Assembly: GCA_029263295.1 (NCBI GenBank)
Contig: JAJCXT010000055.1
Span: 17,085 to 81,084 of the forward strand
Source of the DNA: Acidobacteriota bacterium
Lineage (GTDB): Bacteria; Acidobacteriota; UBA890; WLXD01
Length of the DNA stretch: 64,000 bases
Reading direction: 5' to 3'
The translations under genes and the position numbers were made by a program. Shown one piece after another: positions 3,309 through 40,752 of this stretch (positions within the stretch are counted from its first letter, which is position 1; each line of letters opens with the position of its first letter). The notes below the pieces were generated by a model that saw nothing but the letters and a program-made list of their open reading frames with translations, was not told the DNA's origin and ran no database searches.

Positions 3309-3365
3309 CGCGGCCCGGCGATCTTTTTCGAAACCCGCGCGGCAACTCGCCGTATATCTTTTACT

Positions 3366-6076: not shown

Positions 6077-6403
6077 ATGAGTAAAGGAAACTACCTGGGC
6101 GAATTCGAGATCGTGGTGCTCTCGACCTTGCTGCACCTCGGTGAGAACGCTTACGGAATGACCATTCGCTGCGAGATCGACGAGCACACCGGTCGGTCGG
6201 TGTCGATCGGCGCGATCTACGCCACGTTGCGGCGGCTCGAACGCAAAGGACTGGTCGTCTCGCATCTCGGCGAACCGACCGCCGAGCGCGGTGGTCGTGC
6301 CAAGCGCTTCTTCGCTCTCGAGCCGGCCGGTGAAGACGCCGTCGCACGCTCACGCGCGATGTTCGCCCGTCTCTGGAACGACCTTCCTGAGGCGCGCGGC
6401 TAG
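6077..6403 (+). CDS. PadR-family transcriptional regulator (subtype A; module 1, downstream of its permease)
   Basis: 108 aa winged-HTH with 'LGENAYGMTIRCEI...IYATLRRLERKGLV...ERGGRAKRFFAL'. It starts 21 bp after the ADOP1 stop. Confidence 0.85.
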   Translation: MSKGNYLGEFEIVVLSTLLHLGENAYGMTIRCEIDEHTGRSVSIGAIYATLRRLERKGLVVSHLGEPTAERGGRAKRFFALEPAGEDAVARSRAMFARLWNDLPEARG

Positions 6404-9944: not shown

Positions 9945-10185
9945 GGGCAGGCTCCTGGACGGTGTCGGATGAGCGGAATCGATGGGCCGAGATCAATCCA
10001 CAGAAGGGGAGTCGGATATCAGTTCGAAGTATGCCAGATCGAACTGCCGCCAGACCGCGGCGCGGGAACCGCCGGACCGGCTGGCCAGTTCTGACCGCTG
10101 AGACTGATCGGCACGTTCGTCTACGTTCGTGATACTATATCCATATGTGGATATATCTAGCAGTGGGTAGAGCCGGGGTGCGGCT

Positions 10186-12866: not shown

Positions 12867-13175
12867 ATGAGCCAACCGTTGCGCCCGCTGGTGTTCCAGA
12901 TTCTCCTGATCCTCAACGAGGAGGAAACACACGGCTACGGAATCATGAAAGCCGTTAACGAACGCACAGGCCGTAAGACGATCCTGGGACCGGCCACGCT
13001 CTACCGCACGCTCGGACAGATGCGTGACCAGGGACTGATCGACGAGACCCCCACCGACGATGAGCGGCGCCGCGTCTACACGCTGAGCGAAGAAGGGCGC
13101 CGCATGGCCCGGGACGAGGCCGAGCGCATGGCGATGCTCGTGGAACGGGCGCGCGCCGGGCGGCTCCTTGGCTAG
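12867..13175 (+). CDS. PadR-family transcriptional regulator (subtype B; module 2, downstream of its permease)
   Basis: 102 aa with 'LVFQILLILNEEETHGYGIMKAVNERTG...LYRTLGQMRDQGLI...RRVYTLSEEG'. It lies 5 bp after the ADOP2 stop. Confidence 0.85.
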   Translation: MSQPLRPLVFQILLILNEEETHGYGIMKAVNERTGRKTILGPATLYRTLGQMRDQGLIDETPTDDERRRVYTLSEEGRRMARDEAERMAMLVERARAGRLLG

Positions 13176-19468: not shown

Positions 19469-19483
19469 TTCTTGAAACAAGAA
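19469..19483. promoter_or_regulatory. Perfect inverted repeat TTCTTG-AAA-CAAGAA in the AT-rich divergent intergenic region (candidate PadR-3 operator)
   Basis: 'ttcttgaaacaagaa' lies 28 bp upstream of the PadR-3 ATG. It overlaps a TTGAAA -35-like hexamer and sits in a 45-bp AT-rich island. Confidence 0.5.
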
Positions 19484-19510
19484 TAAACCCCCTCCGTATG
19501 GAGATAGACC

Positions 19511-19849
19511 ATGACTCGTTCCGCAGCACTCAATGACGTCGAACAGTTTGTTCTACTGGCACTCTTGCGCCTCGGCGAGAACGCGTACGGGGTCCCGATC
19601 CGGGCAGAGATCGAGGAGCGAGCCGACCGCGCCATCTCGATGGCTGCCGTCTACGCAGCTCTGGACCGCATGCAGCGCGGTGGACTGATCGCAGCACAAC
19701 TTTCCGAGCCGCGCCCCGAGCGTGGCGGCCGCGCCCGCAAGCATTTTCGTTTACGTCCGGCAGGCACCCGCGCACTCGAGGACGCCCGCGGCGCGATGGA
19801 TCGCATGTGGGATGGCGTCGATCTGCCAACGGACGCGGAGGCACGGTGA
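19511..19849 (+). CDS. PadR-family transcriptional regulator (subtype A; module 3)
   Basis: 112 aa with 'LGENAYGVPIRAEIEERADRAISMAAVYAALDRMQRGGLI...ERGGRARKHFRL'. It is closest to PadR-1. Confidence 0.85.
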   Translation: MTRSAALNDVEQFVLLALLRLGENAYGVPIRAEIEERADRAISMAAVYAALDRMQRGGLIAAQLSEPRPERGGRARKHFRLRPAGTRALEDARGAMDRMWDGVDLPTDAEAR

Positions 19850-22542
19850 CCGCTCGCCCACCCCGCCTCGCGTCTTGGCTGCTGCGCCGGGTTCTGGACC
19901 CGCGGCAGCGCGAGTACATCCTCGACGACCTGGCAGAGGACTACGATCGGCGCCGCCGCATGGCCGGGCTGCCGCGAACGTACTTCTGGTACTGGTCCGA
20001 AACCGTTCGCTCGATCAGGCCGAGTCTGCGCGCCCGCGCCAACAGCAACCGAAGCCGTTATCCCCACAACGGAATCAAATCGATGGACATCTTCTTCGCC
20101 GACCTGAAACAGTCTGCTCGCCGCTTGCTCAAGACACCCGCGTTTACCGTCGCCGCGGTGATCACGCTGGCGTTGGGTCTCGGCGCCAACGTCGCGATCT
20201 TCACTCTGGTCAACGGAATTGTTCTACGGCCGCTGCCGTACCCGGAGCCGGAACGCCTGGTCTCGATCCGCCATACAGCGCCCGGCCTCGGTCTTGACCT
20301 GATGGAAATGTCGATGGGCACGTACGTCCACTTCATGGCGAACGCCAACCTGGTGGAGTCTGCGGGCCTTCTGGTGAACGCCGGCGTGAACCTCACGGGC
20401 GACGGCGCCCCTGAGCGACTCGAAGGCGCGAGCGTGAACCATACCTTCCTACCGACGCTTGGCGTCAAGCCGGTGCTCGGACGCACTTTCACGGCGGAGG
20501 ACGACCGCGTCGACACGCCGTCCAACGTCATCATCAGCCATGCGCTTTGGCAGCAACGTTTCGGCGGAGATCCGGATATCGTCGGCAACCTGATCAAGCT
20601 GCAGGGGAAGACGCGCGAGATTATCGGCGTGATGCCAGAAGGGTTCGCCTACCCTTCGCGCGGCGTGTCGGTCTACTTACCGATGAAGGTGCCCGAATCG
20701 GATATTCGGTTCGGCGGCTTCTTCCGCAAGGGCATAGCCCGGCTGAAGCCGGGCGTGACTCCGGAACAGTTCGCGGCCGAACTCACGGCCCTGATCCCGT
20801 CGCTGGGCGCCGCCTATGACGTACCGGCGACGATGCTCGAGGAGGCCCAGGTCGGCGCGCTGGTCGACCCGCTCAAGGAGCGCTTTCTCGGCAACATCGA
20901 GCAGCCGCTCACGATTCTGTTCGGCACCGTCGGCTTCGTGCTCCTGATCGCCTGCGCCAACGTCGCCAATCTCTTCCTGGTACGGGCGGAGGGACGGAAC
21001 AAGGAGGTGGCCGTGCGTCGCGCTCTGGGTTCGTCGCGAGTACGGCTGAGCACGCTGTTCTTGCTCGAGGCGGTGCTGCTCGGCGGTGTGGGCGGTCTGG
21101 GCGGCCTCGCTGTGGCCTGGATCGGCGTGCGCGCGGTACAGCTATCTGGTGTGAGCCTGCCACGCATCGATCAGGTCAGCATCGACGGCCGCGTGATCCT
21201 GTTCGCTGCCGGTGCGAGCATGCTGTCGACGCTGTTGTTCGGGGCAATCCCTGCGCTTCGTCTGGCCCGGCGCGACCTGGATCGAGCCCTGAACGACGAG
21301 AGCCGTGGCACCACGCTGAGCCGCGGTCGCCACCGCGCCCGCAACCTGCTGGTCGGCGCGCAGATCGCGCTGGCGTTGATGCTCCTCGTCGGCTCGGCCT
21401 TGATGGCACAGAGTTCCTGGCGCCTCGCCAACGTCGACCCCGGCTATCGAACTGAGAACCTGCTCACCGCCCAGGTACTACTTCCCGGCGCAGACTACCC
21501 GACCGAGGAGGACGTAGTCGCCTTCTACAGCCAGGTGGTTGAGCGAGTGGAAGCCATCCCCGCTGTTGTCTCGGCGGCTGCCAGCAGCGAGGTGCCTCTG
21601 CATCCGGGCCAGGGACGCTGGGACGCGCTGTATGTCGAGGGTGCCGCCCTCGATCCCAACACCCTGCCGCCCGTGGTGATCTTCCGCTACGTGACCGCGG
21701 GGTATTTCAACACGCTCGGCATTCCGCTCGTGCGGGGCCGCGGCTTCGTGCCCACCGACGCGGTCGAAGGTAACGCTGCGGCGCTAGTCAGCGAATCGAT
21801 CGCACGCGACTTCTGGCCCGATGGCCCCGCCCTCGGCGGCCGCGCCTGGCAAGACGTGCCCCCCGACGAAGAGCCGATGCCGCACTACACCGTGGCCGGC
21901 ATCGTGGGTGACACGCTCGATCAGGATCTCGCCGACGAGCCGACATCGATCCTCTACTACCCGGTTCTGGAACAGGGCGCCGGCAACCTGCACTGGGTGC
22001 CCTCGCAGCTGACCGTGATCGCCCGCACCGACGGCGATGCGCTGGCGCAGGCCGAGGCCCTCCGCCGCGCGATCTGGTCGCTCGACTCGAATCTGCCGAT
22101 CGCCAACATCCGCACGATCGCCTCGATTGTGAACGAATCGACGCTGAACACCCGGTTCACCATGACCCTCCTGGTGCTGGCGGCCGGAATCGCGCTCTTC
22201 CTCGGCGGCATCGGCCTGTACGGAACGATCTCGTACATCGTCAGTCAACGGACCCGTGAAATTGGCGTGCGCATGGCGCTGGGCGCGGCCCGGAACGACG
22301 TAGCCAACATGGTCCTGCGGCAGGGCAGTCGCGTCGCGGTCATGGGTCTGAGCGTCGGGATGGTGGCCGCACTTGCGCTGGCCCGGGTTCTCGACAGCCT
22401 CCTGTACGAGATCAGCTCGACCGACCCTGCAACCTACATCGCGATGGCGGCCCTGCTCCTGGTCGTCGCGACGCTGGCCACCTATATCCCCGCCCGCCGG
22501 GCGGCCCGGCTCGACCCCTTGGAGGGGTTGCGTGCCGAGTAG
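19846..22542 (+). CDS. MacB/FtsX-type duplicated orphan permease (ADOP family) with prefix domain (module 3)
   Basis: The GTG start at 19846 overlaps the PadR-3 TGA stop (GTGA). The prefix 'PPRLASWLLRRVLDPRQREYILDDLAEDY...TYFWYWSETVRSI' is homologous to the ADOP1 prefix. FtsX block 1 is 'NVANLFLVRAEGRNKEVAVRRALGS' and block 2 is 'YIVSQRTREIGVRMALGA'. The C-terminus is 'PLEGLRAE'. Confidence 0.85.
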   Translation: MTARPPRLASWLLRRVLDPRQREYILDDLAEDYDRRRRMAGLPRTYFWYWSETVRSIRPSLRARANSNRSRYPHNGIKSMDIFFADLKQSARRLLKTPAFTVAAVITLALGLGANVAIFTLVNGIVLRPLPYPEPERLVSIRHTAPGLGLDLMEMSMGTYVHFMANANLVESAGLLVNAGVNLTGDGAPERLEGASVNHTFLPTLGVKPVLGRTFTAEDDRVDTPSNVIISHALWQQRFGGDPDIVGNLIKLQGKTREIIGVMPEGFAYPSRGVSVYLPMKVPESDIRFGGFFRKGIARLKPGVTPEQFAAELTALIPSLGAAYDVPATMLEEAQVGALVDPLKERFLGNIEQPLTILFGTVGFVLLIACANVANLFLVRAEGRNKEVAVRRALGSSRVRLSTLFLLEAVLLGGVGGLGGLAVAWIGVRAVQLSGVSLPRIDQVSIDGRVILFAAGASMLSTLLFGAIPALRLARRDLDRALNDESRGTTLSRGRHRARNLLVGAQIALALMLLVGSALMAQSSWRLANVDPGYRTENLLTAQVLLPGADYPTEEDVVAFYSQVVERVEAIPAVVSAAASSEVPLHPGQGRWDALYVEGAALDPNTLPPVVIFRYVTAGYFNTLGIPLVRGRGFVPTDAVEGNAAALVSESIARDFWPDGPALGGRAWQDVPPDEEPMPHYTVAGIVGDTLDQDLADEPTSILYYPVLEQGAGNLHWVPSQLTVIARTDGDALAQAEALRRAIWSLDSNLPIANIRTIASIVNESTLNTRFTMTLLVLAAGIALFLGGIGLYGTISYIVSQRTREIGVRMALGAARNDVANMVLRQGSRVAVMGLSVGMVAALALARVLDSLLYEISSTDPATYIAMAALLLVVATLATYIPARRAARLDPLEGLRAE

Positions 22543-28572: not shown

Positions 28573-28593
28573 TTCCTTAGACAAACTAAGGAA
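28573..28593. promoter_or_regulatory. Perfect 8-bp inverted repeat TTCCTTAG-N5-CTAAGGAA upstream of the amidohydrolase gene
   Basis: 'ttccttagacaaactaaggaa' lies about 70 bp upstream of the 28662 ATG in an AT-rich leader. Confidence 0.4.
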
Positions 28594-28661: not shown

Positions 28662-30053
28662 ATGACCACCACCAAGACGGCACTCATCGGCACGGCCCTC
28701 ACGCTCGTACTTGGACTGCAAGTCCCATCGGCGTTCGGTACGCCCGGCAGCGCGCGCCTGGAGGGCAACACCACCGCATTCATCAACGTTCATGTCGTGA
28801 GCATGAACCCGGCCCAGAAGAAGCCGTTGCTGAGGCGACAGACCGTCATCGTGCAGGACGGTCGCATCGTGGAGATCGGCAAAGCGAAAAGGGTCACCGT
28901 GCCGGACGGCGCCGAGATCATCAACGGCAAAGGCAAGCTCTACGTCCTGCCCGGGCTCGTCGACATGCACGTACACAACCGTGACGTGCTCGCACTGCCG
29001 GAAGACGTGACGCCTGAGGACATCTACACGATGTACTTCGCCAACGGCATCACGACGGTGCTCGACATGGCGGGGTTCAAGCAGGCCTTCCAGTGGAAGA
29101 AGGACATCGACCGCGGCAAGGTCCTTGGACCAGATTTCAACTTCACCAGTCCACTAATCGACGAGAGAGACTACGCCAGCCTAGCGCAGCTGGAATCGAC
29201 GATCAGCAAGTGGGTGAAGAGAGGCTACCCGTACATCAAGTCGCACGCCATCGCCGATCCAGCAACGCTCACGGCGATCCACAGCCTGGCCAACAAACTC
29301 GAAATACCGGTAATCGGCCACGCGCTGCGGCCGGGCTCACCGATCCAGGACACCCTGGCTCACGACCCCCTCATGATCGCCCACATCGAGGAGATCCTGA
29401 GCACCAGCGTCACCTCTCAGGTCGACTTCGAGGGACAGCTCGCGACACCGCTTCGCGACGTGGCCGCGAGCCGTGTGTGGGTGACGACCACCAATACCGT
29501 GTACGAGATCATCGCCAACACGGTAGACGACGACGCTTTCGCCAGGCTGCTGGGGCGCCCCGAGATGAAGTACATCCCACCCACCGCACGGTCACTGTGG
29601 GAGTTTCAGAACAAGTTCCGAGATCCGAGTTTCGGGGGCGACCGCGACTTCTGGATGGCACAACTCGCCATCGAGTCGTACATCGCAAACCAGCTCGTCG
29701 AACTCGGCGCGCTCGATCGCCTGCTACTGGGCTCAGACGCCGGCGGCCCGGAGCTGGTGCTCCCCGGCTTCTCGATCCATGACGAACTGCGCCTGTTGGT
29801 CGAGGCCGGGCTATCCCCGTGGGAGGCGACCCTGACCGGTACCTACAACCCGTCCGTGTTCTTCGGGACGATGGACGAGGTCGGCACCGTCGAAGAAGGC
29901 AAGCGTGCCGACCTGCTCCTCGTGAAGGGCAACCCACTGAAGAAGATCGGCCGGCTGGCGAAGCCGGCGGGGCTCATGGTCAATGGAGTCTTCCTGTCCG
30001 CGGCCGATCTTGCCGACCGGCTCGAAGCGCTGGCCGCCAAGTGGGTCAGCTGA
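28662..30053 (+). CDS. Secreted amidohydrolase-family metal-dependent hydrolase
   Basis: Signal peptide 'ALIGTALTLVLGLQVPSAFG'. 'LPGLVDMHVHN' is the HxH metal-binding start of the TIM-barrel amidohydrolases. The C-terminus is 'GKRADLLLV...NPL', typical of the family. Confidence 0.8.
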   Translation: MTTTKTALIGTALTLVLGLQVPSAFGTPGSARLEGNTTAFINVHVVSMNPAQKKPLLRRQTVIVQDGRIVEIGKAKRVTVPDGAEIINGKGKLYVLPGLVDMHVHNRDVLALPEDVTPEDIYTMYFANGITTVLDMAGFKQAFQWKKDIDRGKVLGPDFNFTSPLIDERDYASLAQLESTISKWVKRGYPYIKSHAIADPATLTAIHSLANKLEIPVIGHALRPGSPIQDTLAHDPLMIAHIEEILSTSVTSQVDFEGQLATPLRDVAASRVWVTTTNTVYEIIANTVDDDAFARLLGRPEMKYIPPTARSLWEFQNKFRDPSFGGDRDFWMAQLAIESYIANQLVELGALDRLLLGSDAGGPELVLPGFSIHDELRLLVEAGLSPWEATLTGTYNPSVFFGTMDEVGTVEEGKRADLLLVKGNPLKKIGRLAKPAGLMVNGVFLSAADLADRLEALAAKWVS

Positions 30054-30170
30054 CCGCCCCGCGGCAGTGAATCCTGACTGACGGCAGTGGGTTCAGGGGT
30101 AAATAGCGCGGCTCCGGATCCAGCAGGGCACGCTCGAGGTATTCGCTTGAGTTCATGTATGTCTCTAGAC

Positions 30171-30192
30171 ATATATGATCGCGATCATATAT
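30171..30192. promoter_or_regulatory. 22-bp perfect palindrome ATATATGATCGCGATCATATAT upstream of PadR-4 (candidate operator)
   Basis: It is fully self-complementary. It lies 40 bp upstream of the PadR-4 ATG, with an adjacent TCTAGA-containing imperfect dyad at 30156-30170. Confidence 0.55.
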
Positions 30193-30231
30193 CGTGGCTG
30201 ACGTCGAATCTGGCTCCAGCGAGGACAAGTA

Positions 30232-30606
30232 ATGAGCGGGACCGCATCAGAATCCGCGATTGGCGAACTCTTACCGTTGCACACGCGCGACTTTCACATC
30301 CTGCTGACATTGCTCGACGGCGACTGTCACGGCTACGGCCTGGTGAAGGCCATCGAGCGGCGCACCGCGGGCGAGCTGAGCCTCGATCCCGCCAATCTGT
30401 ATCGTGCCCTCCAACGGCTGAAGCAGAGCCGCCTGGTTCGCGACGCTGAAGCGCCGATCGCCGGCGAGGCCGATGGTCGCACGCGTCGTTATCACGGCAT
30501 CACCGATCTCGGCAGAACCACGCTCGAGGCAGAGGCTCAGCGCATGCGCCAGCTCGCCGACGCCGTGCAGGCCCGCGGCGCAGTGGCCTCGTCGGAGGAG
30601 TCGTGA
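30232..30606 (+). CDS. PadR-family transcriptional regulator (subtype B; module 4)
   Basis: 124 aa with 'FHILLTLLDGDCHGYGLVKAIERRTAGELSLDPANLYRALQRLKQSRLV'. Confidence 0.85.
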   Translation: MSGTASESAIGELLPLHTRDFHILLTLLDGDCHGYGLVKAIERRTAGELSLDPANLYRALQRLKQSRLVRDAEAPIAGEADGRTRRYHGITDLGRTTLEAEAQRMRQLADAVQARGAVASSEES

Positions 30607-33359
30607 GCCGCGCCGGCGAAGGCATAAGGGCCGCCACGAAGCCACACGAGTGGGAGCCGCCCCGAGTCGGTTTGCGCACGTACCGTGCTGCGTACGCACT
30701 CCTGATCCGCACGCTACCGCGTCCGCTGCGACGCGACTACAGCGACGACATGCTGCGACTCGCCGACGAGTTGTACCGCGACGCCTCCGGACGCGGCCGC
30801 CGCGCCGCATTGACGCTGGCCGCAACGTCGATCACGCGGCTGCTCAGTAGCGCAATCGGCGCACGCATCCATCAACTGCGGGCCCGATTCGGATCCCGCT
30901 CCTCGCTCCCCCGTAGTCCCCGCCACGGAGGCAGTCCCTTGCACGGCCTGCACCACGACATTCGACTCGGCCTGCGCGCGCTCATCCGAGAGCCCGGGTA
31001 CGCAGCCCTCGTGATCTTCACCCTGGCCCTGGCCATCAGCGTCAACAGCACGATGTTCTCGATGGTGCGGATCCTGCTATCGCCACCAGTACCGTTCGTC
31101 GACATCGACAGGTTGGTCTTCCCGTACTCGCGCAATCAGGAACTCAACCGACAACGTGCCGGCGTCTCGCTTCCCGACATGCTGGATCTCGAAACCGCGG
31201 TGCCGGCGGTCTCGGCGCTGGTCGGACAACGTCGCGAGCGCTTCCTCGTAGCCGGATCCGAGGAGCCCGCCCGAGTCGGCGGGGCGACCGTATCGACCAA
31301 CTACTTCGAGGTGCTCGGCATTCAGCTTGAAATGGGACGCGACTTCCTGCCGGAAGAGTCGACGCCGGGGCGAGGTCGGGTCCTGTTGATCACGCATGGC
31401 AGCTGGGAGCGCCGTTTCGGGGAAGACCCGCAGATCCTGGGCCGTGAGGTGTTCCTGGACGGCATCGCTCACACCGTGGTGGGAGTACTCTCAGAGGGTC
31501 TGGAGGCGGGGCCTTCCCGCGCCATCGAGTTGTACCGACCACTGGCGCACGACGAGGCCACGCTGCGGCGAGATCTTCGTGATCTCTCCGTCATCGGCCG
31601 GCTTGCCTCCGGCGCCTCGTTCGAGCAGGCCGATGAAGGGCTCCTCGCCGCATCTCGCCAGTTACAGAGCGCCCACCCGGACAGCAATTCCGCGTGGGAG
31701 GTTGTCACCCTGGGATTCCGCCAGGCAATGGTCGGGACCAACGCGACGATGGTGTTCTCGCTCATGAGCGGCGCGGTCTTCTTCGTGCTGCTGATCGCGT
31801 GCATCAACGTCGCCAACCTCACGCTGGCGCGGGCCACCGCCCGGCGTCGCGAGTTGACCGTGCGGGTCGCCCTCGGCGCGCGCCGCTGGCGTGTGGTTCG
31901 TCAGATTCTCATCGAGAGCACCCTGCTCGCGCTGTTCGCCGCAGGCGTCGGACTGCTGCTGACCCGCGTCACTTTCGACGGCCTCGTCGCCCTGACCCGT
32001 GGGCGTGTGGGCCTGCTTACCGAGATGAACATCGATGGCGGCATGCTGGTGTTCACGTTGCTGTTGTCGCTGGCCACACCGATCCTGTTCGCGCTCTGGC
32101 CCGCTCTCAAAGCCTCGGGGGGAGACTTGAGCACGGAGCTCAGGAGCGGCGGTCGCGGTGCCAGCTTCGGGCGCTCGGAGCGTAGGCGACGCGGCGTTCT
32201 GGTAGCCACACAGATGACCCTTGCGCTGACGCTGCTGATTCTGGCCAGCCTCACCTCCCGCAGCATGTACGAGCTGCTGAGTATCGATCTCGGTTTCGAT
32301 GCAACCGACCTGCTCACCTTCCAGATCGAGCTACCGGAAGCCAACTATCCTGGCCCCGAGGTGGTCGAAGAGTTCTTCGCGTCGGCACGCGACGAGATCG
32401 CCACGATTCCCGGCGTTCAAGACGTAGCGATCGTCAGTCACCGCCCGATCGTCGGCGGCGAGCCCTCGCTGCGCCTGGTAATCGAGGGCAAGTCTGAAGG
32501 GCGAGGCGGCGACAGCGCCATGGCCGCGGTCGTGGCGGCCGACACGGGCCTCTTCGACACGGTCGGCGTCGCACTGTCGCGCGGTCGAGGTTTCGACCCC
32601 CGCGACGACGCGACCGGCGTTCCAGTTGCGATCGTTAGCCAGGCGGCGGTGGAGCGCTACTGGCCAGAGGGGGATGTGCTCGGCAGCCGCATTCAGATTG
32701 GCGCCGACTCGACGGTGGCGTGGCGCCAGGTCGTCGGCGTGGTCTCCGATCTGCGCAACCCCGACGCCAACCTCCCTCCCGAGCCTCACGTCTACCTGCC
32801 GTTCGCGCAGGATCCGCGCCCGACGATGTCATTCCTGGTCAGGACATCCGGATCGATGGACCAGTTTGCGACTGTGGTTCGCGAGCGGGTTTGGCAGATC
32901 GATCCGCTGCAACCAATCGACGACTTCCGCACCATGCAACAAATCCGCCATGACGACCTCAGCGGTGACCTGGCCATGATCGGCCTGATCGCGCTGTTCG
33001 GAGTCGTCGCGTTCGGCCTCGCTGTCGCCGGGGTCTACGGCGTCGTCTCCTACTCGGTCAGCCAGCGGCGTCGCGAAATCGGCGTGCGCATGGCGGTCGG
33101 CGCGCGCAGCCAGGACGTGCTCGGCATGGTGACCGGACAGGGCCTGACCCATGTGCTGGCTGGCGTCGTGGTCGGCCTTGCCCTCGGGCTCGGGATGTCG
33201 CGCTTGATCGCCGGAACGCTCTACGGCGTCAGCGTTGTCGACCCGGTGACGTTCCTCGGGGTTCCGCTGATGCTGCTTGGCGTGAGTCTCGTCGCCTCTA
33301 TCATCCCGGCCCGACGCGCTGCGCGACTCGACCCGGTGGATACGCTCAGGGTGGAATAG
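30603..33359 (+). CDS. MacB/FtsX-type duplicated orphan permease (ADOP family) with prefix domain (module 4)
   Basis: The GTG start overlaps the PadR-4 stop (GTGA). The prefix is 'YRAAYALLIRTLPRPLRRDYSDDMLRLADELYRD'. FtsX block 1 is 'NVANLTLARATARRRELTVRVALGA' and block 2 is 'YSVSQRRREIGVRMAVGA'. The C-terminus is 'PVDTLRVE'. Confidence 0.85.
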   Translation: MSRAGEGIRAATKPHEWEPPRVGLRTYRAAYALLIRTLPRPLRRDYSDDMLRLADELYRDASGRGRRAALTLAATSITRLLSSAIGARIHQLRARFGSRSSLPRSPRHGGSPLHGLHHDIRLGLRALIREPGYAALVIFTLALAISVNSTMFSMVRILLSPPVPFVDIDRLVFPYSRNQELNRQRAGVSLPDMLDLETAVPAVSALVGQRRERFLVAGSEEPARVGGATVSTNYFEVLGIQLEMGRDFLPEESTPGRGRVLLITHGSWERRFGEDPQILGREVFLDGIAHTVVGVLSEGLEAGPSRAIELYRPLAHDEATLRRDLRDLSVIGRLASGASFEQADEGLLAASRQLQSAHPDSNSAWEVVTLGFRQAMVGTNATMVFSLMSGAVFFVLLIACINVANLTLARATARRRELTVRVALGARRWRVVRQILIESTLLALFAAGVGLLLTRVTFDGLVALTRGRVGLLTEMNIDGGMLVFTLLLSLATPILFALWPALKASGGDLSTELRSGGRGASFGRSERRRRGVLVATQMTLALTLLILASLTSRSMYELLSIDLGFDATDLLTFQIELPEANYPGPEVVEEFFASARDEIATIPGVQDVAIVSHRPIVGGEPSLRLVIEGKSEGRGGDSAMAAVVAADTGLFDTVGVALSRGRGFDPRDDATGVPVAIVSQAAVERYWPEGDVLGSRIQIGADSTVAWRQVVGVVSDLRNPDANLPPEPHVYLPFAQDPRPTMSFLVRTSGSMDQFATVVRERVWQIDPLQPIDDFRTMQQIRHDDLSGDLAMIGLIALFGVVAFGLAVAGVYGVVSYSVSQRRREIGVRMAVGARSQDVLGMVTGQGLTHVLAGVVVGLALGLGMSRLIAGTLYGVSVVDPVTFLGVPLMLLGVSLVASIIPARRAARLDPVDTLRVE

Positions 33360-33441: not shown

Positions 33442-33473
33442 CTCGTATACTAGATATATACCTAGTATACGAG
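33442..33473. promoter_or_regulatory. Inverted repeat CTCGTATACTAG-N8-CTAGTATACGAG upstream of PadR-5 (candidate operator)
   Basis: It has perfect 12-bp arms and an 'atatatac' spacer. It lies about 65 bp upstream of the PadR-5 ATG in an AT-rich island. Confidence 0.55.
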
Positions 33474-33536: not shown

Positions 33537-33845
33537 ATGAGCAAACTCCGAATGACCTTCACGACCGGCGTGGTCCTGCAGTCTATTTCCAGCGGCCATC
33601 GTTACGGCTTCGACATCATGGACGTGTCGGGACTGCCCGACGGCACCGTCTACCCTGCCCTGCGTCGCCTCGAGGACGCGGGCATGCTCGTGTCCGAGTG
33701 GGAGTCGGAGGAGGCGGCCGGCAAGCGGCCGCCTCGCTGCTACTACGGGCTGACCGCCGACGGCGAGGAAATGCTCGCCACCGCGCGCGCGAAGTTCAGA
33801 GGGCTCGCGGGAGCCATCGCCGACCCGGACGCGGGGGCCAGGTAA
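33537..33845 (+). CDS. PadR-family transcriptional regulator (subtype C; module 5)
   Basis: 102 aa with 'GVVLQSISSGHRYGFDIMDVSGLPDGTVYPALRRLEDAGMLVSEWE...RCYYGLTADGEEML'. Confidence 0.8.
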   Translation: MSKLRMTFTTGVVLQSISSGHRYGFDIMDVSGLPDGTVYPALRRLEDAGMLVSEWESEEAAGKRPPRCYYGLTADGEEMLATARAKFRGLAGAIADPDAGAR

Positions 33846-36569
33846 GTGGGAACGTCAAATACCTTCCGTCCGGAATCTAAACTCGCGCCGAGCACCGGTA
33901 TCGCCTTGCGCGCGGGTCTCCTGGTCGTCCGCGCCGCGTCGTGGGTAGCGCCGGCCCGGGAACGCGATCGCTTTCACCGACAGTGGTGCGGCGAGCTGAG
34001 CTTCGCGGCTGAGCGCTCGACGACCTCCGGCCAAGCACTCCTGCGCCGCTCCCTCCTGGCGCTTCGTGATGCGGTCACTCTGCGCACCCGCCGAGCCCGG
34101 GGCGAGGGCCCCGCCGGCGCCACGCCTCCTGGCGGCCCCCGACCGCGGCTGCTGGAAGAATTCCTGCAGGATCTGCGCTTTGGTTTCCGCTCACTGCGGA
34201 AATCACCCGGGTTCACCGCCGTCGCGATCATGACCACCGCGCTGGGCATCGGCGCAACGACGACCATCTTCAGTCTCGTCGATGGCATCCTGCTCAAGCC
34301 GCTGCCCTACCCGGACCCCGAGCACCTGGTTGTGGTGTGGCCCGAGATGCACTTCTCCAGCGCGTTGATCGACCGCGTCGAACCGAGCCTCGAGGCCTAT
34401 GACGCGTTCTCCGGCTACGGCGACAGCTGGGAGTACACGTGGCTGAGGGACGATGGTGCCGAACGCCTGCGCGGGCCGATCGCCACGGCCGGGTTCTTCG
34501 ACGTCCTCGGAGTACCGATGACGCTCGGCCGCGGGTTCCAGGCCGGCGACGACGCTCCCGGGGCAACGAACGTTGTCCTGAGCGAACGCTTCTGGCGTGA
34601 GCGTCTCGAGGCCAGCCCCGATGTCATCGGCACTGCAATGCGAATCAACGGCCAGGAGCACGTCGTCGTTGGGGTCGGCGGACCGTCGATGAGTGCCTTC
34701 CATCCCGATGCCGACATCGTGATGCCATGGATACTCGATGCGGCGGCGCCGTCGTATCGATCGCAGGATCTGAAGCTCATCGCGCGACTGCGCGCCGGCG
34801 TCGGACCCGAGGCTGCGCTAGCCGAGTTGCGCGTCTTCATCGACGGGCTGAAAACCGAGTTCGAGTTGCCCGTCGACTTCGGCGACGACGCCGAGATCAT
34901 GCCGCTGCAGACCTACCTGGTGGGTGACAGCCGCCCGATGCTGCTACTGCTGTTCGGCGCCGTCGGCCTGACCTTGCTGATCGCCAGCGCCAACGTAGCC
35001 AACCTGTTGCTCGCGCGGGCCCTCGCACGACAGCGTGAGATCGCGGTCCGCGTCGCGCTCGGAGCCCGTGGCGGCAGGCTGGCGAGACAGATCCTCACCG
35101 AGACCTCGCTGCTCGGTTTGCTCGGTGCGATTCCGGGGGTCCTGCTCGCGGTCTTCGGGCTCAGCGTCGTGCTGTCGTTGTTGCCCGCAGACACACCGCG
35201 CCTCGCCAGCGTGGCCATCGACGGCACTGCCCTCGCTTTCTCGATCGGCATCGCCCTGCTCACCGGCTGCGCCGTGGGTGTTATTCCCGCCATCCAGGCG
35301 GCGCGCTCCGACGTGCGCGACACGCTGACCTCGGGCGGGCGTAGTGGCAGCGACAGCGCCGGGCGACAGCGCCTGCGCCGCCTCGTGGTCCTGTCCGAAA
35401 TCGCCCTGGCTGTCACGCTGGTCGCCGCCGCCGGACTCCTCGTCAAGAGTTTCCTGCGGGTCACGGACGTCGACCCTGGATTCCAGCCGGACGGACTGGT
35501 GACCTTCAACATCGACCCTGCCCGGGAGACGCTGGGTTCCGCGTCCGAGGCGCGCCAGTATTACGCGCGCCTGCGGGAGCGGCTCGACGCTCTTCCGGGA
35601 GTCGGCGAGACCTCCTCGGTCTGGAAGGTGGCCTTCAGTGAGGATGGCGGGCTCAACGGTCTGCGGCGCGCGGACAAGCCGCTGAACCCCGACGACCGGG
35701 GTGAACTCGTCCGCTGGCGTCCAGTCGCTAACAACTACTTCGCTACAGCCGGACTCCGCCTGCGGCGCGGACGCCTCTTCGCGTCGGACGACGAGGGCGG
35801 CGAACCGGTTACGGTGATCTCGCAGGCAATGACCGACGTCCTCTTCCCCGGCGAAGACCCCATCGGCCATCAGATCTTGACCACCATGGAACGAGAAGTT
35901 CCGCTGCGCATCATCGGCGTCGTGGAAGACCTGAAACTAGCCGGCCTCGATCGCGCTGGTCCGGCGGTCGCCTATCGGCCCTACGCGCAAGTTGACGAGA
36001 TCATGACGGAATACGGGATGTTCTATCGGCGCTGGATCGTCCTGCGCACGGCCGGCTCACCGGCACCCGGGATCGCTGCGACGATCCGCAACGCCGTGCG
36101 CGAGGAGGACCCCACCGCACTGTTTGCAGACTACGTCGCGATGCCTACCGCCATCAGCAACTCGCTGGCGGCGAGGCGAGCCACCATGACCCTCCTGACG
36201 GTGTTCGCCCTCTCGGCGGTCACCCTTGGCGCCATCGGCATCTATGGCGTGATGGCCTATGCGGTACGGCAACGTGCGCGGGAGATCAGCATCCGCGTGG
36301 CGCTCGGAGCGACGCAGCGACGAGTCATCCGCGATGTGATCAGCGATTCGCTCAAGGTCGCCCTCGGCGGCACTGCCCTCGGTCTTGTCCTGACTCTCGG
36401 CGCGGCGCAGTGGGTGCGAGAGTTCCTGTTCGAGGTCGACGCGTTCGATCCCGTCGTACTCGCAGCGGCGGCCGGGTCCGCGATGCTTGTCGCGGTGACG
36501 GCTTCGTTGCTGCCGGCATGGCGAGCCGCACAGGCGGATCCGGCAACGACCCTCGGAAGCGACGAGTAG
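33846..36569 (+). CDS. MacB/FtsX-type duplicated orphan permease (ADOP family) with prefix domain (module 5)
   Basis: The GTG start directly abuts the PadR-5 TAA. The prefix is 'ALRAGLLVVRAASWVAPARERDRFHRQWCGELSFAAE'. FtsX block 1 is 'NVANLLLARALARQREIAVRVALGA' and block 2 is 'YAVRQRAREISIRVALGA'. The C-terminus is 'PATTLGSDE'. Confidence 0.85.
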   Translation: MGTSNTFRPESKLAPSTGIALRAGLLVVRAASWVAPARERDRFHRQWCGELSFAAERSTTSGQALLRRSLLALRDAVTLRTRRARGEGPAGATPPGGPRPRLLEEFLQDLRFGFRSLRKSPGFTAVAIMTTALGIGATTTIFSLVDGILLKPLPYPDPEHLVVVWPEMHFSSALIDRVEPSLEAYDAFSGYGDSWEYTWLRDDGAERLRGPIATAGFFDVLGVPMTLGRGFQAGDDAPGATNVVLSERFWRERLEASPDVIGTAMRINGQEHVVVGVGGPSMSAFHPDADIVMPWILDAAAPSYRSQDLKLIARLRAGVGPEAALAELRVFIDGLKTEFELPVDFGDDAEIMPLQTYLVGDSRPMLLLLFGAVGLTLLIASANVANLLLARALARQREIAVRVALGARGGRLARQILTETSLLGLLGAIPGVLLAVFGLSVVLSLLPADTPRLASVAIDGTALAFSIGIALLTGCAVGVIPAIQAARSDVRDTLTSGGRSGSDSAGRQRLRRLVVLSEIALAVTLVAAAGLLVKSFLRVTDVDPGFQPDGLVTFNIDPARETLGSASEARQYYARLRERLDALPGVGETSSVWKVAFSEDGGLNGLRRADKPLNPDDRGELVRWRPVANNYFATAGLRLRRGRLFASDDEGGEPVTVISQAMTDVLFPGEDPIGHQILTTMEREVPLRIIGVVEDLKLAGLDRAGPAVAYRPYAQVDEIMTEYGMFYRRWIVLRTAGSPAPGIAATIRNAVREEDPTALFADYVAMPTAISNSLAARRATMTLLTVFALSAVTLGAIGIYGVMAYAVRQRAREISIRVALGATQRRVIRDVISDSLKVALGGTALGLVLTLGAAQWVREFLFEVDAFDPVVLAAAAGSAMLVAVTASLLPAWRAAQADPATTLGSDE

Positions 36570-36615
36570 GCACAGTCGTCACGGGTACTTGCGGACGGTG
36601 ATTTGCTTTTATATA

Positions 36616-36646
36616 TGTAAATCGAATATATTCACTTTGATTTACA
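36616..36646. promoter_or_regulatory. Nested dyad: TGTAAATC-N15-GATTTACA enclosing the perfect 10-bp palindrome GAATATATTC, upstream of PadR-6
   Basis: 'tgtaaatcgaatatattcactttgatttaca' ends 16 bp before the GTG start at 36662. The RBS AGGAG is at 36651-36655. Confidence 0.55.
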
Positions 36647-36661: not shown

Positions 36662-37006
36662 GTGTCTGAACCGCAAGATTTGATTCCGCTTCGACCCGTT
36701 GACCTACAAATCCTGCTCGTGCTTGCCAACGCCAACCTGCATGGTTACGGCGTGATGAAGGCCGTTCGGGAAGAGTCGGGCGGCCGGGTCGGCCTCGAAG
36801 TCGGGTCGCTCTACCGCGTCATCAACCGCCTGCTGGACAGCGACCTGATCGAGCAGGTCGCGCCGGCAGCCGGCAGCGATGACCCGCGACGCAAACACGA
36901 CTACGCCATCACCGAACTCGGCCGTGCCACGGTTCGCGCCGAGAGCGAGCGCCTCGCCCAGGTGTTGGCCACCGCGCGCGCACGCGACCTGGCTGGCCGA
37001 GCGTGA
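36662..37006 (+). CDS. PadR-family transcriptional regulator (subtype B; module 6)
   Basis: 114 aa with 'VDLQILLVLANANLHGYGVMKAVREESGGRVGLEVGSLYRVINRLLDSDLI'. Confidence 0.85.
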   Translation: MSEPQDLIPLRPVDLQILLVLANANLHGYGVMKAVREESGGRVGLEVGSLYRVINRLLDSDLIEQVAPAAGSDDPRRKHDYAITELGRATVRAESERLAQVLATARARDLAGRA

Positions 37007-39732
37007 GCGACCTCCGCGTTCCCGGACTGACGCTCGCCGCGCACCTGCTGCGATCGGCTACGCTCGCGTACCCTCTCGCCTTTCGCCGCCGCTTCGCGTC
37101 CGAGATGCAGTGCGCGTTCCAGGAGCGCTGCTCGGACGCTTGGAGGGACCGCGGCAGCCGAGGACTAGCGGCGGCCGTGAGCCGCACGATTCTCGATGTC
37201 CTCCGCGCCGGATTGGGCGAACGACTCGAACACCGCCGTACCGCTCCCGCACCTGGCCCCCACCTCCGCCCCGATCCCCCAGATCGTGTGCCCATGTTCA
37301 GCTCGACTCTGCAAGACATCCGTTTCGCAGCCCGTCTGTTGCGCAAGAACCCCGGATTCACTCTGGTGGCTGTGCTCACGTTGGCCCTCGGCATCGGCGC
37401 GAACACCGCCATCTTCACGCTCGTCGACTCGCTCCTCGGCCGCCCGCTGCCCGGCATCGAGGACTCGGACAGCCTGTTCGCCCTCTACACCGCGGACAGC
37501 GGCGGCTCGCCTGGCGTCTCGTCGATCGTCGATTTCCGTGACTTCGAGGAACAACTCGACACTGTGTCCGGCGTCGCCGCCTACAAGCCACGCGGAGCCA
37601 ACGTCAGCAACGGCGGCGTGACCGAGCAATTGTCGAGCATGATGGTCACGGGCAGCTACTTCGAGGTGCTTGGTGTCGCTGCAGTCCTCGGCCGAACGAT
37701 CGGGCTGGAGGACGACATCGAGCCCGACGGCCACCCCGTAGGGCTGATCTCGTATGGCCTGTGGCAGCGACGCTTCGCCGGCGATCCGGATGCCGTAGGC
37801 AGCGAGCTTCGAGTCAACGGTCGCGCGTTCACGATCATCGGCGTCACCCCACGAGGCTTCCGAGGAACCTGGCTGGAAAGCGGACCCGACCTATTCGTCC
37901 CCATGGCAATGCAGCCAACCATGATGCCGGGTAACGGCAACCTTCTGGAGCGGCGAGGCTGGGGCGGAGTCCTGGTGCTCGGACGCAGGGCCGAGGGACA
38001 GAGCGTGGAAGCCGTCCGGGCCGAGATCGAGACCGTCGGCGCCTGGCTGCGGACGACGTTTCGTGTGGCCCAGGGACGCGACTATCAGGTCGTATCGTTC
38101 GCCGAGGGAACCATGGCCCCACAGGCGCGAACGATGGTGGTTCAGCTCAGCGCGTTGTTGTTCATCGTGGCCGGATTGGTCCTCCTGATCGCCTGTGTGA
38201 ACGTAGCGAATCTGCTACTGGCGCGAGCCGCCAGACGGACTCGCGAAATCGCGGTGCGCCAGGCACTCGGAGCTGGCCGCCGACGGATCGTCAATCAACT
38301 GATGGCCGAGAGCCTGCTGTTGAGCGGACTCGGAGGCGTCGTCGGCATAGGCGTTGGCGCCTTCCTGGCGCGCGCTGTCGGCCAGCTCCCTGTCGGCCTC
38401 ACGATGGCGACGGGCATCGACCAGCGCGCTCTGCTCTTCTGTGCGGGAGTGACTCTCCTCACCGGGCTGGCTTTCGGGCTCGTTCCGGCTCGCCGCGCCG
38501 CCCAGATCGACGTCAACAGCCGCTTGCGCGATGGCGGGCAGAACGTCTCGGCCCGCGGCGGGCTCTCGAGCGGCCTGGTCGTTGTGCAGGTGGCGATCTC
38601 TGTCGTGCTGCTGGTCACCGCGGGTCTGTTTGTGCGGACCCTCGCCAACCTGAGTCGTCTGGACCTCGGCTTCGACCCTGCTGTGGCGACCGTTGGCACG
38701 GACCCCGGCCTGCAGGGCTATTCGACTGCCGAGACGGCACAGTTCTACGCAGCGGCCCGGGAGCGGCTGGCCGCGCTGCCAGGTGTGCAGCGCGTCAGCT
38801 ACGTCAACGCGCTACCGGGCCCGGAGAACGACGGCGAGGACACCTTCTCGATCGACGGCTACGCCCCTGCCGACGGCAACCCCGTCGCGCTCTTCAGCCT
38901 CGTCGGGCCTGACTACTTCGAGCTACTCCGCATCCCGATCGTGGAGGGTCGGGGCCTGCTCGTCACGGACACAGAAGGCACTCAGGGCGTGGTAGTGATC
39001 AACCAGGCTGGCGCCGACCGACTCGAGCAACTCACCGGTCGGCCCGGGCTAGGCGCCCGCCTCAGTGTCTTCGGCAGCCCGTGGGTCGAGGTTGTCGGCG
39101 TGGTCGCTAACAGCGTGACCAGCGGTGTCGCCGACGCCCCCCGCACCACACTGTATGTGCCCCAGCAGCAGCTGGCCTCCACACCATTCGCTTCGCGAAT
39201 GACGCTGCTAGTACGAGCTGACGGCGAGCCGGCCACCATGGTCGAGGAGGTGCGGAACGTCGTGCGCTCAATCGACCCCGCGTTGCCCGTCTTCAACGTT
39301 GGCACGCTGGAAACACGGATGGCGAGCGCGCTCGCCCAGGAACGCCTCACCGCCGTGGCCATAGGCGCCGCCGCCCTTTTGGCACTGGCGCTGGCGCTCG
39401 TCGGCCTGTACGGAATCCTCGCCTATACCGTGAGTCGCCGGGCAGCGGAACTCGGAGTCCGTATGGCCCTCGGCGCCGACGCCTCGCACCTCGTACGGAT
39501 GGTGCTCCGGCAAGCCTCTGCTTTGGTCGTGCTGGGCCTGGTGTTCGGGTTAGCCGGCGCGGCCGCGCTTGCTGGGCTGGTGGAGGGCTTCCTGTTCGAT
39601 GTCGCGGCCCTCGACGTGGCCACCTACGTCGGAGTCCTGGCACTGATGTTCGCCGTCAGCCTGGCTGCCGCATGGGTACCCGCGCGGCGCGCCACGAGCC
39701 TGGACCCGGTACGCGCACTCCGCAGCGAGTAA
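37003..39732 (+). CDS. MacB/FtsX-type duplicated orphan permease (ADOP family) with prefix domain (module 6)
   Basis: The GTG start overlaps the PadR-6 stop (GTGA). The prefix is 'LTLAAHLLRSATLAYPLAFRRRFASEMQCAFQERCSD'. FtsX block 1 is 'NVANLLLARAARRTREIAVRQALGA' and block 2 is 'YTVSRRAAELGVRMALGA'. The C-terminus is 'PVRALRSE'. Confidence 0.85.
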   Translation: MSDLRVPGLTLAAHLLRSATLAYPLAFRRRFASEMQCAFQERCSDAWRDRGSRGLAAAVSRTILDVLRAGLGERLEHRRTAPAPGPHLRPDPPDRVPMFSSTLQDIRFAARLLRKNPGFTLVAVLTLALGIGANTAIFTLVDSLLGRPLPGIEDSDSLFALYTADSGGSPGVSSIVDFRDFEEQLDTVSGVAAYKPRGANVSNGGVTEQLSSMMVTGSYFEVLGVAAVLGRTIGLEDDIEPDGHPVGLISYGLWQRRFAGDPDAVGSELRVNGRAFTIIGVTPRGFRGTWLESGPDLFVPMAMQPTMMPGNGNLLERRGWGGVLVLGRRAEGQSVEAVRAEIETVGAWLRTTFRVAQGRDYQVVSFAEGTMAPQARTMVVQLSALLFIVAGLVLLIACVNVANLLLARAARRTREIAVRQALGAGRRRIVNQLMAESLLLSGLGGVVGIGVGAFLARAVGQLPVGLTMATGIDQRALLFCAGVTLLTGLAFGLVPARRAAQIDVNSRLRDGGQNVSARGGLSSGLVVVQVAISVVLLVTAGLFVRTLANLSRLDLGFDPAVATVGTDPGLQGYSTAETAQFYAAARERLAALPGVQRVSYVNALPGPENDGEDTFSIDGYAPADGNPVALFSLVGPDYFELLRIPIVEGRGLLVTDTEGTQGVVVINQAGADRLEQLTGRPGLGARLSVFGSPWVEVVGVVANSVTSGVADAPRTTLYVPQQQLASTPFASRMTLLVRADGEPATMVEEVRNVVRSIDPALPVFNVGTLETRMASALAQERLTAVAIGAAALLALALALVGLYGILAYTVSRRAAELGVRMALGADASHLVRMVLRQASALVVLGLVFGLAGAAALAGLVEGFLFDVAALDVATYVGVLALMFAVSLAAAWVPARRATSLDPVRALRSE

Positions 39733-39835
39733 AGGCTCGGCCGCCAGCTTCGACGTCGTAATCGGAGTCAGCGCTAGGAACCGGCCGTTTGATCCAACGT
39801 CGAGACGCGCGCTCGCGGTTGCATGATTCTGCTAT

Positions 39836-39859
39836 ATATGTAACTAATAAGTTACATAT
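39836..39859. promoter_or_regulatory. Inverted repeat ATATGTAAC-N6-GTTACATAT overlapping the ArsR start codon (candidate autoregulatory operator)
   Basis: It has perfect 9-bp arms. The right arm ends inside the ATG at 39858-39860. Confidence 0.5.
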
Positions 39860-40205
39860 GGAAATCGACTCGTTCGACGCCATCTTCCAGGCGCTCGCCC
39901 ACCCGGCCCGCCGCCGCATGCTCGACATCGTCAAGGACGCGCCCGGCTGCAACGTCAACGACGTTGCAGCCGCGTTCGAGATGAGCCGCATCGGCGTGAT
40001 GAAGCACCTGAGCAAGCTCGAGGATGCGGGTCTGATCCACTCGGAGAAGTCGGGGCGGGTTCGGCGACTCTACTTCAACGTGGTGCCGATCCAGCTTGTG
40101 TACGACCGCTGGACCCACGAGTACAGCGCCTGGTGGGCCGGGCGCCTGGCCGACATCAAGTACGCCGTGGAAACCGGCGCCGACACCGAGGATACCGATG
40201 GCTGA
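39858..40205 (+). CDS. ArsR/SmtB-family transcriptional regulator
   Basis: It has the 'FQALAHPARRRMLDIV...NVNDVAAAFEMSRIGVMKHLSKLEDAGLI' HTH. The track ORF starts earlier at 39789 with a GTG; the ATG at 39858 is preferred. Confidence 0.8.
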   Translation: MEIDSFDAIFQALAHPARRRMLDIVKDAPGCNVNDVAAAFEMSRIGVMKHLSKLEDAGLIHSEKSGRVRRLYFNVVPIQLVYDRWTHEYSAWWAGRLADIKYAVETGADTEDTDG

Positions 40206-40752
40206 GACCGAGACCTTCGTCGCCAAGATCTTCATTCGCGGAACGATCGACGCGGTGTGGCGCGAAATCACCAAGACTGACGCCGTGCAGGGCGCCATGT
40301 TCAACATGCGCATGCACACCAACGGACTCGCCCTGGGCGGCCACATCCAGATGCGCACGGACGATGGCAAGTACACCGGCGTCGTCGGCGAGATCCTCGA
40401 ATACGACCCGCCGCACCGGTATGCCCACACCTTCCGCTTCACTCAACACGACGACCCGCAGTGCGTGGTCACCTACGACCTCGAGGAGGTGGACGGCGGC
40501 GTTGAGTTCACGCTCACGTCCAGCGACGTGACCGTCGGCACCAAGACCGCCAAACAGATGAAGAGCGGCGGCGACTTCATCTGCAAGACCCTCAAGGCCA
40601 TCATCGAGACTGGCCGCCCCAAGCTACATGTGCGCCTTATCTACGGGATCTTCCGCTTGCTCGCCTTCACCTCGCCCGCGCACACCCGCGCGGAGCACTG
40701 GCCCCTCGAGGGCGGCGACCACGCGGACACCGCAACCACGCCACCAGCCTGA
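40198..40752 (+). CDS. SRPBCC-superfamily protein, AHSA1 (activator of Hsp90 ATPase homologue)-like
   Basis: The ATG overlaps the ArsR stop ('gATGgcTGA'). 'FVAKIFIRGTIDAVWREITK...' marks the typical AHSA1/polyketide-cyclase-like fold, canonically partnered with ArsR. Confidence 0.65.
   Translation: MAETETFVAKIFIRGTIDAVWREITKTDAVQGAMFNMRMHTNGLALGGHIQMRTDDGKYTGVVGEILEYDPPHRYAHTFRFTQHDDPQCVVTYDLEEVDGGVEFTLTSSDVTVGTKTAKQMKSGGDFICKTLKAIIETGRPKLHVRLIYGIFRLLAFTSPAHTRAEHWPLEGGDHADTATTPPA

Follow-up and report, generated by a model that had tools for sequence, protein, structure and literature searches.

The window analysed here, a stretch of 64,000 nucleotides, has a GC content of ~65% (the ~68% claimed in an earlier note on this DNA was slightly too high), and its closest relatives are metagenome-assembled Acidobacteriota. 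It carries six modules, each consisting of a small PadR-family gene and a gene encoding an ADOP permease of ~900 aa. The genes are listed in Table 1 together with the candidate regulatory sites discussed below. In Acidobacteriota, the families of the ADOP permeases and of their PadR partners rank with the most expanded ones; a literature search on the function of the PadR-ADOP pair turned up no paper.

Table 1. Genes of the six PadR-ADOP modules, the predicted PadR4 promoter and the candidate operators (positions in the window).
Feature	Position	Strand	Remarks
ADOP1, then PadR1	3366-6056, 6077-6403	+	N-terminal perm_prefix_2 domain on ADOP1
ADOP2, then PadR2	10186-12861, 12867-13175	+	same order in orthologues
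PadR3, then ADOP3	19511-19849, 19846-22542	+	ADOP3 probable GTG start overlapping PadR3 stop
PadR4	30232-30606	+	124 aa; PF03551 match; PadR subfamily-2 (LmrR-like)
ADOP4	30603-33359	+	duplicated FtsX/MacB-PCD permease; start overlaps PadR4 stop (GTGA)
PadR5, then ADOP5	33537-33845, 33846-36569	+	
PadR6, then ADOP6	36662-37006, 37003-39732	+	GTGA overlap
Predicted sigma-70-like promoter, PadR4-ADOP4 operon	30166-30195	+	consensus scan, 9/12
Module 1 candidate operator, CGTATAT-N8-ATGTACG	3351-3372		replaces TTTCGAAA; arms kept in L112, spacer differs
Module 2 candidate operator	10136-10171		site 1 TATATCCA-N4-TGGATATA at 10136-10155
PadR3 candidate operator, TTTTTCTTGAAACAAGAATAA	19466-19486		perfect core 19469-19483; centred on TTGAAA -35-like hexamer
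PadR4 candidate operator site 1, ATGTC-TCTA-GACAT	30159-30172		overlaps predicted -35; near-invariant in 7 aligned orthologous upstream regions
PadR4 candidate operator site 2, 22-bp perfect palindrome ATATATGATCGCGATCATATAT	30171-30192		fills promoter spacer, reaches -10
PadR5 candidate operator, CTCGTATACTAG-N8-CTAGTATACGAG	33442-33473		arms conserved; shuffles beaten
PadR6 conserved block, ATATATGTAAATCGAATATATTC	36611-36638		

The six PadR proteins are 102-124 aa long and only 15-44% identical to one another, a divergence which suggests that the paralogues are old. The PadR gene precedes the permease gene in modules 3-6; the permease start shares a GTGA with the PadR stop in modules 3, 4 and 6, and PadR5 abuts ADOP5. 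The order is permease to PadR in modules 1 and 2, where no AT-rich island was found ahead of the PadR gene. This permease-PadR order is kept in three relatives (L111, L112 and L113).

All six PadRs match PF03551 with 42-56 bits (gathering score 27), and the best PDB matches of PadR4 include the LmrR-type chains 3f8b and 3f8c (E ~1e-7 to 1e-8). PadR subfamily-2 comprises single-domain proteins of ~11-13 kDa that dimerise through a C-terminal helix (PMC5728393), and the length of the six proteins and the PDB matches of PadR4 agree with this description. The DNA-binding residues reported for the family are a Tyr in helix 2, a Tyr in helix 3 and a basic residue in the wing (PMC5728393). All six PadRs show the corresponding (H/A/R)xY-G and xxxYxxL motifs and an R/K-rich wing, although the mapping to the B. 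subtilis numbering is putative. TIGR03433 (padR_acidobact) is the best or second-best NCBIfam match of all six, with 31-59 bits against a cutoff of 101.8, and the six therefore lie outside that curated paralogue family. In a full-length scan of ADOP1, ADOP2 and ADOP4, the three permeases scored 763-814 bits against TIGR03434 (ADOP; cutoff 622.3), and ADOP4, with 796 bits, also contains MacB_PCD twice and FtsX twice in Pfam. The modules thus resemble the TIGR03433/TIGR03434 pairs in having clear ADOP members as permeases, but differ from them in that the PadRs fall below the TIGR03433 cutoff, in an uncultured Acidobacteriota lineage.

The arrangement of the modules differs between genomes. In the window the PadR4-ADOP4 module is inserted between an amidohydrolase gene and the PadR5 module (30054-33359 region, compared with the related loci L108 and L109). 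In OFTM137 (L108), PadR5 directly follows the amidohydrolase gene and the PadR4 module lies at another place (L001). On this evidence the PadR-ADOP modules move as units.

The upstream regions of the modules are conspicuously AT-rich, as the earlier note had observed. A scan of the 64 kb for 30-nt stretches in which A+T makes up 70% or more gave only 8 places: the upstream regions of the six modules, that of an ArsR-type gene, and 55411. The last (55411-55450), near the start of the minus-strand ORF 54921-55514, is the sole AT-rich island unlinked to a regulator module. The six dyads proposed earlier, one for each module, were all recovered letter for letter where they had been placed, and they are 66-83% A+T. 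Their symmetry was assessed with 2000 mono- and dinucleotide shuffles per intergenic region, counting perfect dyads with arms at least as long as observed. The 22-bp palindrome of module 4 (shuffle fraction 0.0005-0.0015) and the 12-N8-12 dyad of module 5 (≤0.0005) were rarely matched. The 8-N15-8 dyad of module 6 (0.012-0.018) and the 8-N4-8 dyad of module 2 (0.06) were marginal, the 6-N3-6 dyad of module 3 (0.32) was not significant alone, and TTTCGAAA of module 1 (0.87-0.99) was at pure chance level. The 64 kb contain only five perfect dyads whose arms reach 10 or more, and three of the five are AT-rich, namely those of PadR4 and PadR5 and one before the ArsR-type gene. The longest perfect dyad of the window, with 13-bp arms (CGGCTGCAACGTCaacGACGTTGCAGCCG, 39944-39972), is GC-rich and lies inside the ArsR coding sequence.

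The PadR4 upstream region gave the clearest picture. A consensus scan predicted a promoter with a -35 hexamer TAGACA (30166-30171), an 18-nt spacer and a -10 hexamer TATCGT (30190-30195), and these hexamers are kept in orthologues as TAGACA/TTGACA and TATnGT. An exact-sequence look-up had no match for PadR4. PadR4 orthologues with flanking sequence showed 84, 79, 77, 74 and 53-60% protein identity, the best match among GTDB species representatives being 74% identical. Their upstream regions align over a single block, cATGTCTnTAGACATATATG-N8-CATrTATnGTGG, with invariant columns at 30159-30164 (ATGTCT), 30166, 30168-30173 (GACATA), 30175-30177 (ATG), 30185-30187 (TCA) and 30190-30191 (TA). The best-conserved element is therefore the ATGTC-N4-GACAT dyad (site 1; extended form TATGTCTctAGACATA / TATGTCTCTAGACATA, 30158-30173), directly next to the 22-bp palindrome, rather than the palindrome itself. 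The predicted -35 lies within site 1 and the predicted -10 at the right end of the palindrome. The neighbours upstream of the block vary by genome (peptidase, kinase, SelO or divergent genes), which ties the block to the PadR module rather than to the gene before it. A minus-strand ORF (29843-30172) that ends inside the palindrome was dismissed, as it overlaps the amidohydrolase gene and the neighbours of the block vary among orthologous loci.

Of the 22-bp palindrome, the outer arms alone are conserved in the orthologues, as ATATG-N8-CATrT. The inner 8 nt read ATCGCGAT in the window and ACTGCGAT, TCTGCGCT, TCTACGCT, CTTGCAGT or TGGGTTGT in the orthologues. By this alignment the perfect 22-bp symmetry, on which the earlier note had laid its emphasis, is specific to the genome of the window, and constraint appears to act only on the outer ATATG...CATAT arms. 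The palindrome nevertheless occupies the expected place of a second dyad in a two-part operator, with its core ATG-N8-CAT (30175-30188) 16 bp from site 1. The core of this site 2 would have drifted from GTC/GAC to GAT/ATC in both arms.

The other PadR-first modules also carry conserved dyads. The arms and most of the spacer of the PadR5 dyad are near-invariant in four orthologues (68-91% protein identity) while the flanks diverge, and in L108 all 32 bp form a perfect palindrome. Upstream of PadR6 the dyad AAAtcGAATA|TATTCacTTT (36619-36638) has a perfect core GAATATATTC at 36624-36633. L109 and L108 keep TATATGTAA(A/T)TCGAATATATTCGA ahead of PadR6, where TCGAATATATTCGA is a perfect palindrome, and they have no right arm GATTTACA of the outer dyad. 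The conserved PadR6 dyad is therefore the inner one, already bracketed in the earlier note, and the outer 8-N15-8 dyad (36616-36646) drawn there is window-specific. For PadR3, TTTTCTTGAAACAAGAA is kept in three orthologous loci, and an 8-3-8 perfect palindrome is present in L109/L111. A small hairpin CTCCGTATGGAG at 19491-19504 covers the GGAG ribosome-binding site of PadR3 and is absent in L109.

In module 2, the arms of site 1 are invariant and the N4 is variable in three orthologues (72-83% identity). A degenerate site 2, TATATCTAGCAGTGGGTAGA (10152-10171), lies sixteen bp downstream of site 1, and its TGG is kept. In module 1, TTTCGAAA (3326-3333), at chance level in the shuffles, reads TTTTGAAA in L112 and is not kept there as a palindrome; it looks like a -35 hexamer. 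The candidate that we put in its place spans a -10-like TATATC and the ADOP1 ATG, and this is a weak assignment, the weakest of the six. The TATATC (3353-3358) ends 7 nt ahead of the ATG at 3366, and this arrangement and the first four codons of ADOP1 are identical in L112. The ADOP1 transcript appears to be leaderless.

Taken together, the footprints on the arms of modules 2-6 and the paralogue-specific recognition helices described below support the proposal of the earlier note that each PadR has a dyad operator of its own, although several sites had been drawn wrongly. The dyads listed for PadR5, ADOP2 and PadR3 proved to be conserved, and PadR4 site 1 and the second site of module 2 had been missed. 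We consider it about 75% probable that the AT-rich dyads are autorepressor operators and that each module is an autoregulated operon under its own LmrR-like PadR.

Intergenic palindromes are typical of REP elements and terminators, and an intrinsic terminator consists of a GC-rich stem followed by a T-run. We considered REP/MITE-like repeats, terminators and structured RNA leaders as well; the PadR5 dyad, 64 nt before the ATG, could be transcribed. Within the window no dyad has a second copy, even when 3-5 mismatches are allowed, and in 1.1 Mb of related loci the dyads were found at orthologous positions only; the dispersed recurrence which the earlier note had named as grounds for rejecting its proposal was not seen in these sequences. 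The dyads are AT-rich and have no T-run, and none of the six was called as a terminator, two weak hairpin calls (3339-3353 and 19487-19505) adjoining them. An Rfam scan of the whole window gave no matches. Moreover, the dyads move with the PadR gene and not with the upstream gene. Judged from the window and the related loci, an origin as repeats, terminators or RNA leaders is thus very unlikely.

In a high-GC organism, AT-rich blocks might also be mere core promoters (-35, -10 and UP-like elements) with incidental symmetry and no repressor. The sites do overlap -35/-10-like hexamers, and some of the conservation could for this reason be promoter constraint. The ATATAT outer arms of the 22-bp palindrome are self-complementary, and the dyads of module 1 and module 3 do not exceed what shuffling gives by chance. 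The promoter of PadR4 is a consensus-scan match; those of the other modules are conserved hexamers recognised by eye or were not placed, and the consensus scan upstream of modules 1-3 found no promoter-like match. However, both arms are kept symmetrically while the central N4 or N8 varies, and the half-sites differ wholly among modules, though all of them would be read by one RNA polymerase. The type of half-site tracks the recognition helix of the adjacent regulator, and the PadR5 orthologues keep a 32-bp dyad, far beyond the size of a promoter hexamer. These observations make core promoters alone an improbable explanation.

The relation between recognition helix and half-site was surveyed in 130 non-redundant PadR genes from 113 fetched loci and the window. 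GTC-N4-GAC was present within 200 nt upstream of 72 of the 76 genes with the DPANLY helix of PadR4 and of 8 of the 54 genes with other helices; 10% of random 200-nt windows contain it. Fisher's test gave 4.5e-22, a value inflated by shared ancestry. The distance between successive GTC-N4-GAC sites was 15 bp in 38 cases and 16 bp in 3, and the sites usually formed tandem pairs. Within each orthologue group the helix is constant, save for one PadR2 orthologue (L113) with two changed positions, and in the alignment it differs between the paralogues: SIGAIYATLRRLERKG in PadR1, GPATLYRTL in PadR2, SMAAVYAALDRM in PadR3, DPANLYRALQRL in PadR4, PDGTVYPALRRLEDAG in PadR5 and EVGSLYRVINRLL in PadR6. 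In the fetched loci, the helix QPGALYRLLKQLL pairs with TATGGAC...GTCCATA upstream, and the helix RPGDVYRVIYRL with CGTATACG. When the upstream regions of different loci were compared, the proportion of pairs sharing at least one AT-rich 9-mer rose with regulator identity, from 4-7% of pairs below 50% identity to 20% at 50-60%, 31% at 60-70%, 56% at 70-80% and 70% at 80-90%. Half-sites as well as recognition helices differ from paralogue to paralogue. Probably, each regulator acts on its own module alone.

Further dyads are present near regulator and enzyme genes of the window. A seventh AT-rich perfect dyad, ATATGTAACT-aata-AGTTACATAT (39836-39859), extends to the second base of the ATG at 39858, the start of an ArsR/HTH_20 regulator gene. 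A gene for an AHSA1/SRPBCC protein follows the regulator gene in this region (39858-40752). The dyad is conserved in L109 as GTAACTAATTAGTTAC upstream of 16330. The -10-like TAATAA 6-7 nt before the ATG suggests that the ArsR mRNA is leaderless. The word TATATATGTAA occurs in both the PadR6 and the ArsR upstream regions (36609-36620 and 39832-39843), and L109 retains ATATGTAA at each of the two positions. The shared word may be coincidental or may reflect common regulation. Another dyad, TTCCTTAG-acaaa-CTAAGGAA at 28573-28593, follows a conserved promoter-like pair, TTGAC / TACTGT, and precedes the amidohydrolase gene (28662) by 69 nt; it is partly kept in L108 (TTCATTAGACAGACTAAGGAA).

The dyads might also be operators without insulation, if some PadRs cross-regulate neighbouring modules or if some of the sites are bound by another regulator such as the ArsR-type protein encoded next to them; PadR4 site 2, with its GATCGCGATC core, could then belong to another protein. 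It is consistent with this that site 2 has no GTC/GAC core like that of site 1, and that the word shared by the PadR6 and ArsR upstream regions is retained in L109. The helices of PadR1 and PadR3 are similar, and TTTTT(C)TTGAAAC-like words occur in both modules. In OFTM137, a PadR4-type site ATGTCTCTCGACATGTACAG (L001 6726-6745) precedes by ~120 nt a PadR other than a PadR4 orthologue, which hints at cross-regulation between modules in that genome and at an insulation that is not absolute. On the other hand, no half-site of one module was found in the upstream region of another in the window, even with mismatches allowed. The tandem 15-16 bp layout is the norm for this PadR clade, and site 2 is therefore where a second PadR dimer is expected. 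We regard operators without insulation as unlikely.

Under autoregulation by separate PadRs, a homodimer of a small LmrR-like PadR would bind the AT-rich dyad in or next to the promoter of its operon. The bound dimer would occlude the promoter and block RNA polymerase until a signal releases the repressor. At PadR4, one dimer would sit on ATGTC-N4-GACAT over the -35 and another 16 bp further downstream on site 2, within the spacer and around the -10. Autorepression by promoter occlusion of this kind would resemble that of LmrR, B. subtilis PadR and the Listeria PadR repressors (PMC4534193, PMC5728393, PMC6624303). We infer binding, repression, dimer stoichiometry and insulation from the footprints, the covariation of helix and half-site, and the promoter overlap at PadR4.

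PadR dimers are reported to bind palindromes (PMC5728393), and LmrR of Lactococcus lactis autorepresses via two motifs and several dimers (PMC4534193). Like LmrR, the PadRs studied here are small single-domain proteins encoded beside transporter genes, and the palindromic motifs with more than one dimer per LmrR promoter (PMC4534193) recall the arrangement proposed for PadR4. A difference is that the exporter under LmrR control is a classical ABC type, which has ATPase domains, whereas the modules encode an ATPase-less duplicated FtsX/MacB-PCD permease. LmrR also binds drugs in its dimer pocket, and in the modules the half-sites differ and the canonical box is absent. This canonical PadR box is the dyad ATGT-N8-ACAT (PMC10295242), which has 0 matches in the window; the candidate operators are non-canonical and specific to each clade. 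At the padC operator (IR1-2) of B. subtilis, a PadR dimer binds a palindrome overlapping a second dyad (PMC5728393, PMC10295242), much as proposed for PadR4. PadR4 site 1, ATGT-N6-ACAT, has the same ends as the B. subtilis box and another spacing, and the paralogues have unrelated half-sites (TGGATATA, CGTATAC, TCGAATA and TTCTTG). B. subtilis PadR, with two domains, belongs to subfamily-1 and differs in this from the PadRs studied here.

The gene pairs also resemble other regulator-membrane protein systems. Ravi et al. (2024) described HAAS-PadR dyads that include fusions to FtsX-like TM domains with MacB/PCD, and proposed that the signal passes from the membrane protein to its PadR partner (PMC11237479). 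In these dyads and in the Listeria LltR/LstR/LftR operons, the gene for a standalone PadR-like wHTH protein is paired with one for a membrane protein, as here. Listeria LftR, LltR and LstR repress their own genes, and their operons are autorepressed (PMC6624303). These descriptions give no operator motifs for the acidobacterial permease-linked systems. All six modules are adjacent or overlapping pairs of a PadR and an FtsX-like/MacB-PCD membrane protein, which is the gene pairing of HAAS-PadR dyads. In such dyads the membrane partner begins with a HAAS domain, a three-helix unit resembling DUF1700, DUF1129 or DUF1048 and kinked at a GxP (PMC11237479). A search for HAAS/DUF1700 in the N-termini of the permeases gave no Pfam match at E≤0.1, and no GxP motif was evident. 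Three long helices are seen in the AlphaFold model of the ADOP4 N-terminus, which is of low confidence (pLDDT 60.7). The NCBIfam domain perm_prefix_2 is found only on the N-termini of ADOP1 (3366-3725) and ADOP3 (19846-20235), and PadR1 and PadR3 are each other's closest paralogues (44% identity); thus, the prefix type seems to co-vary with the PadR clade. Translational coupling and the limitation of perm_prefix_2 to the PadR1 and PadR3 modules fit a protein-protein partnership, without proving one. The suggestion of the earlier note that each module may respond to a ligand of its own, in the manner of LmrR, and signalling by the permease, as in the HAAS-PadR model, would explain derepression equally well.

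A further-reaching reading is that the window holds six parallel insulated HAAS-PadR circuits, each with an ADOP permease as sensor, a coupled PadR as output and an operator code that can be read from sequence. In such a code, DPANLY may correspond to GTC-N4-GAC, QPGALY to TATGGAC and PDGTVY to CGTATAC. We hold this only tentatively and think that it is doubtful on balance.

Very probably, then, the finding is real and ordinary in kind: paralogue-specific operators of autoregulated PadR-permease operons, several of them redrawn here. Regulation by a winged-helix dimer that represses its own promoter from an overlapping dyad, with specificity that has diverged among the paralogues, is known from textbooks, and specialists would not be surprised by it. 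The operator sequences and the link between helix and half-site give testable handles on what induces each ADOP-PadR module. If the reading as six parallel circuits is true, it would allow regulons and specificities to be predicted for the large PadR-ADOP expansions of Acidobacteriota and Gemmatimonadota, and it would provide a first handle on the role of these orphan permeases.
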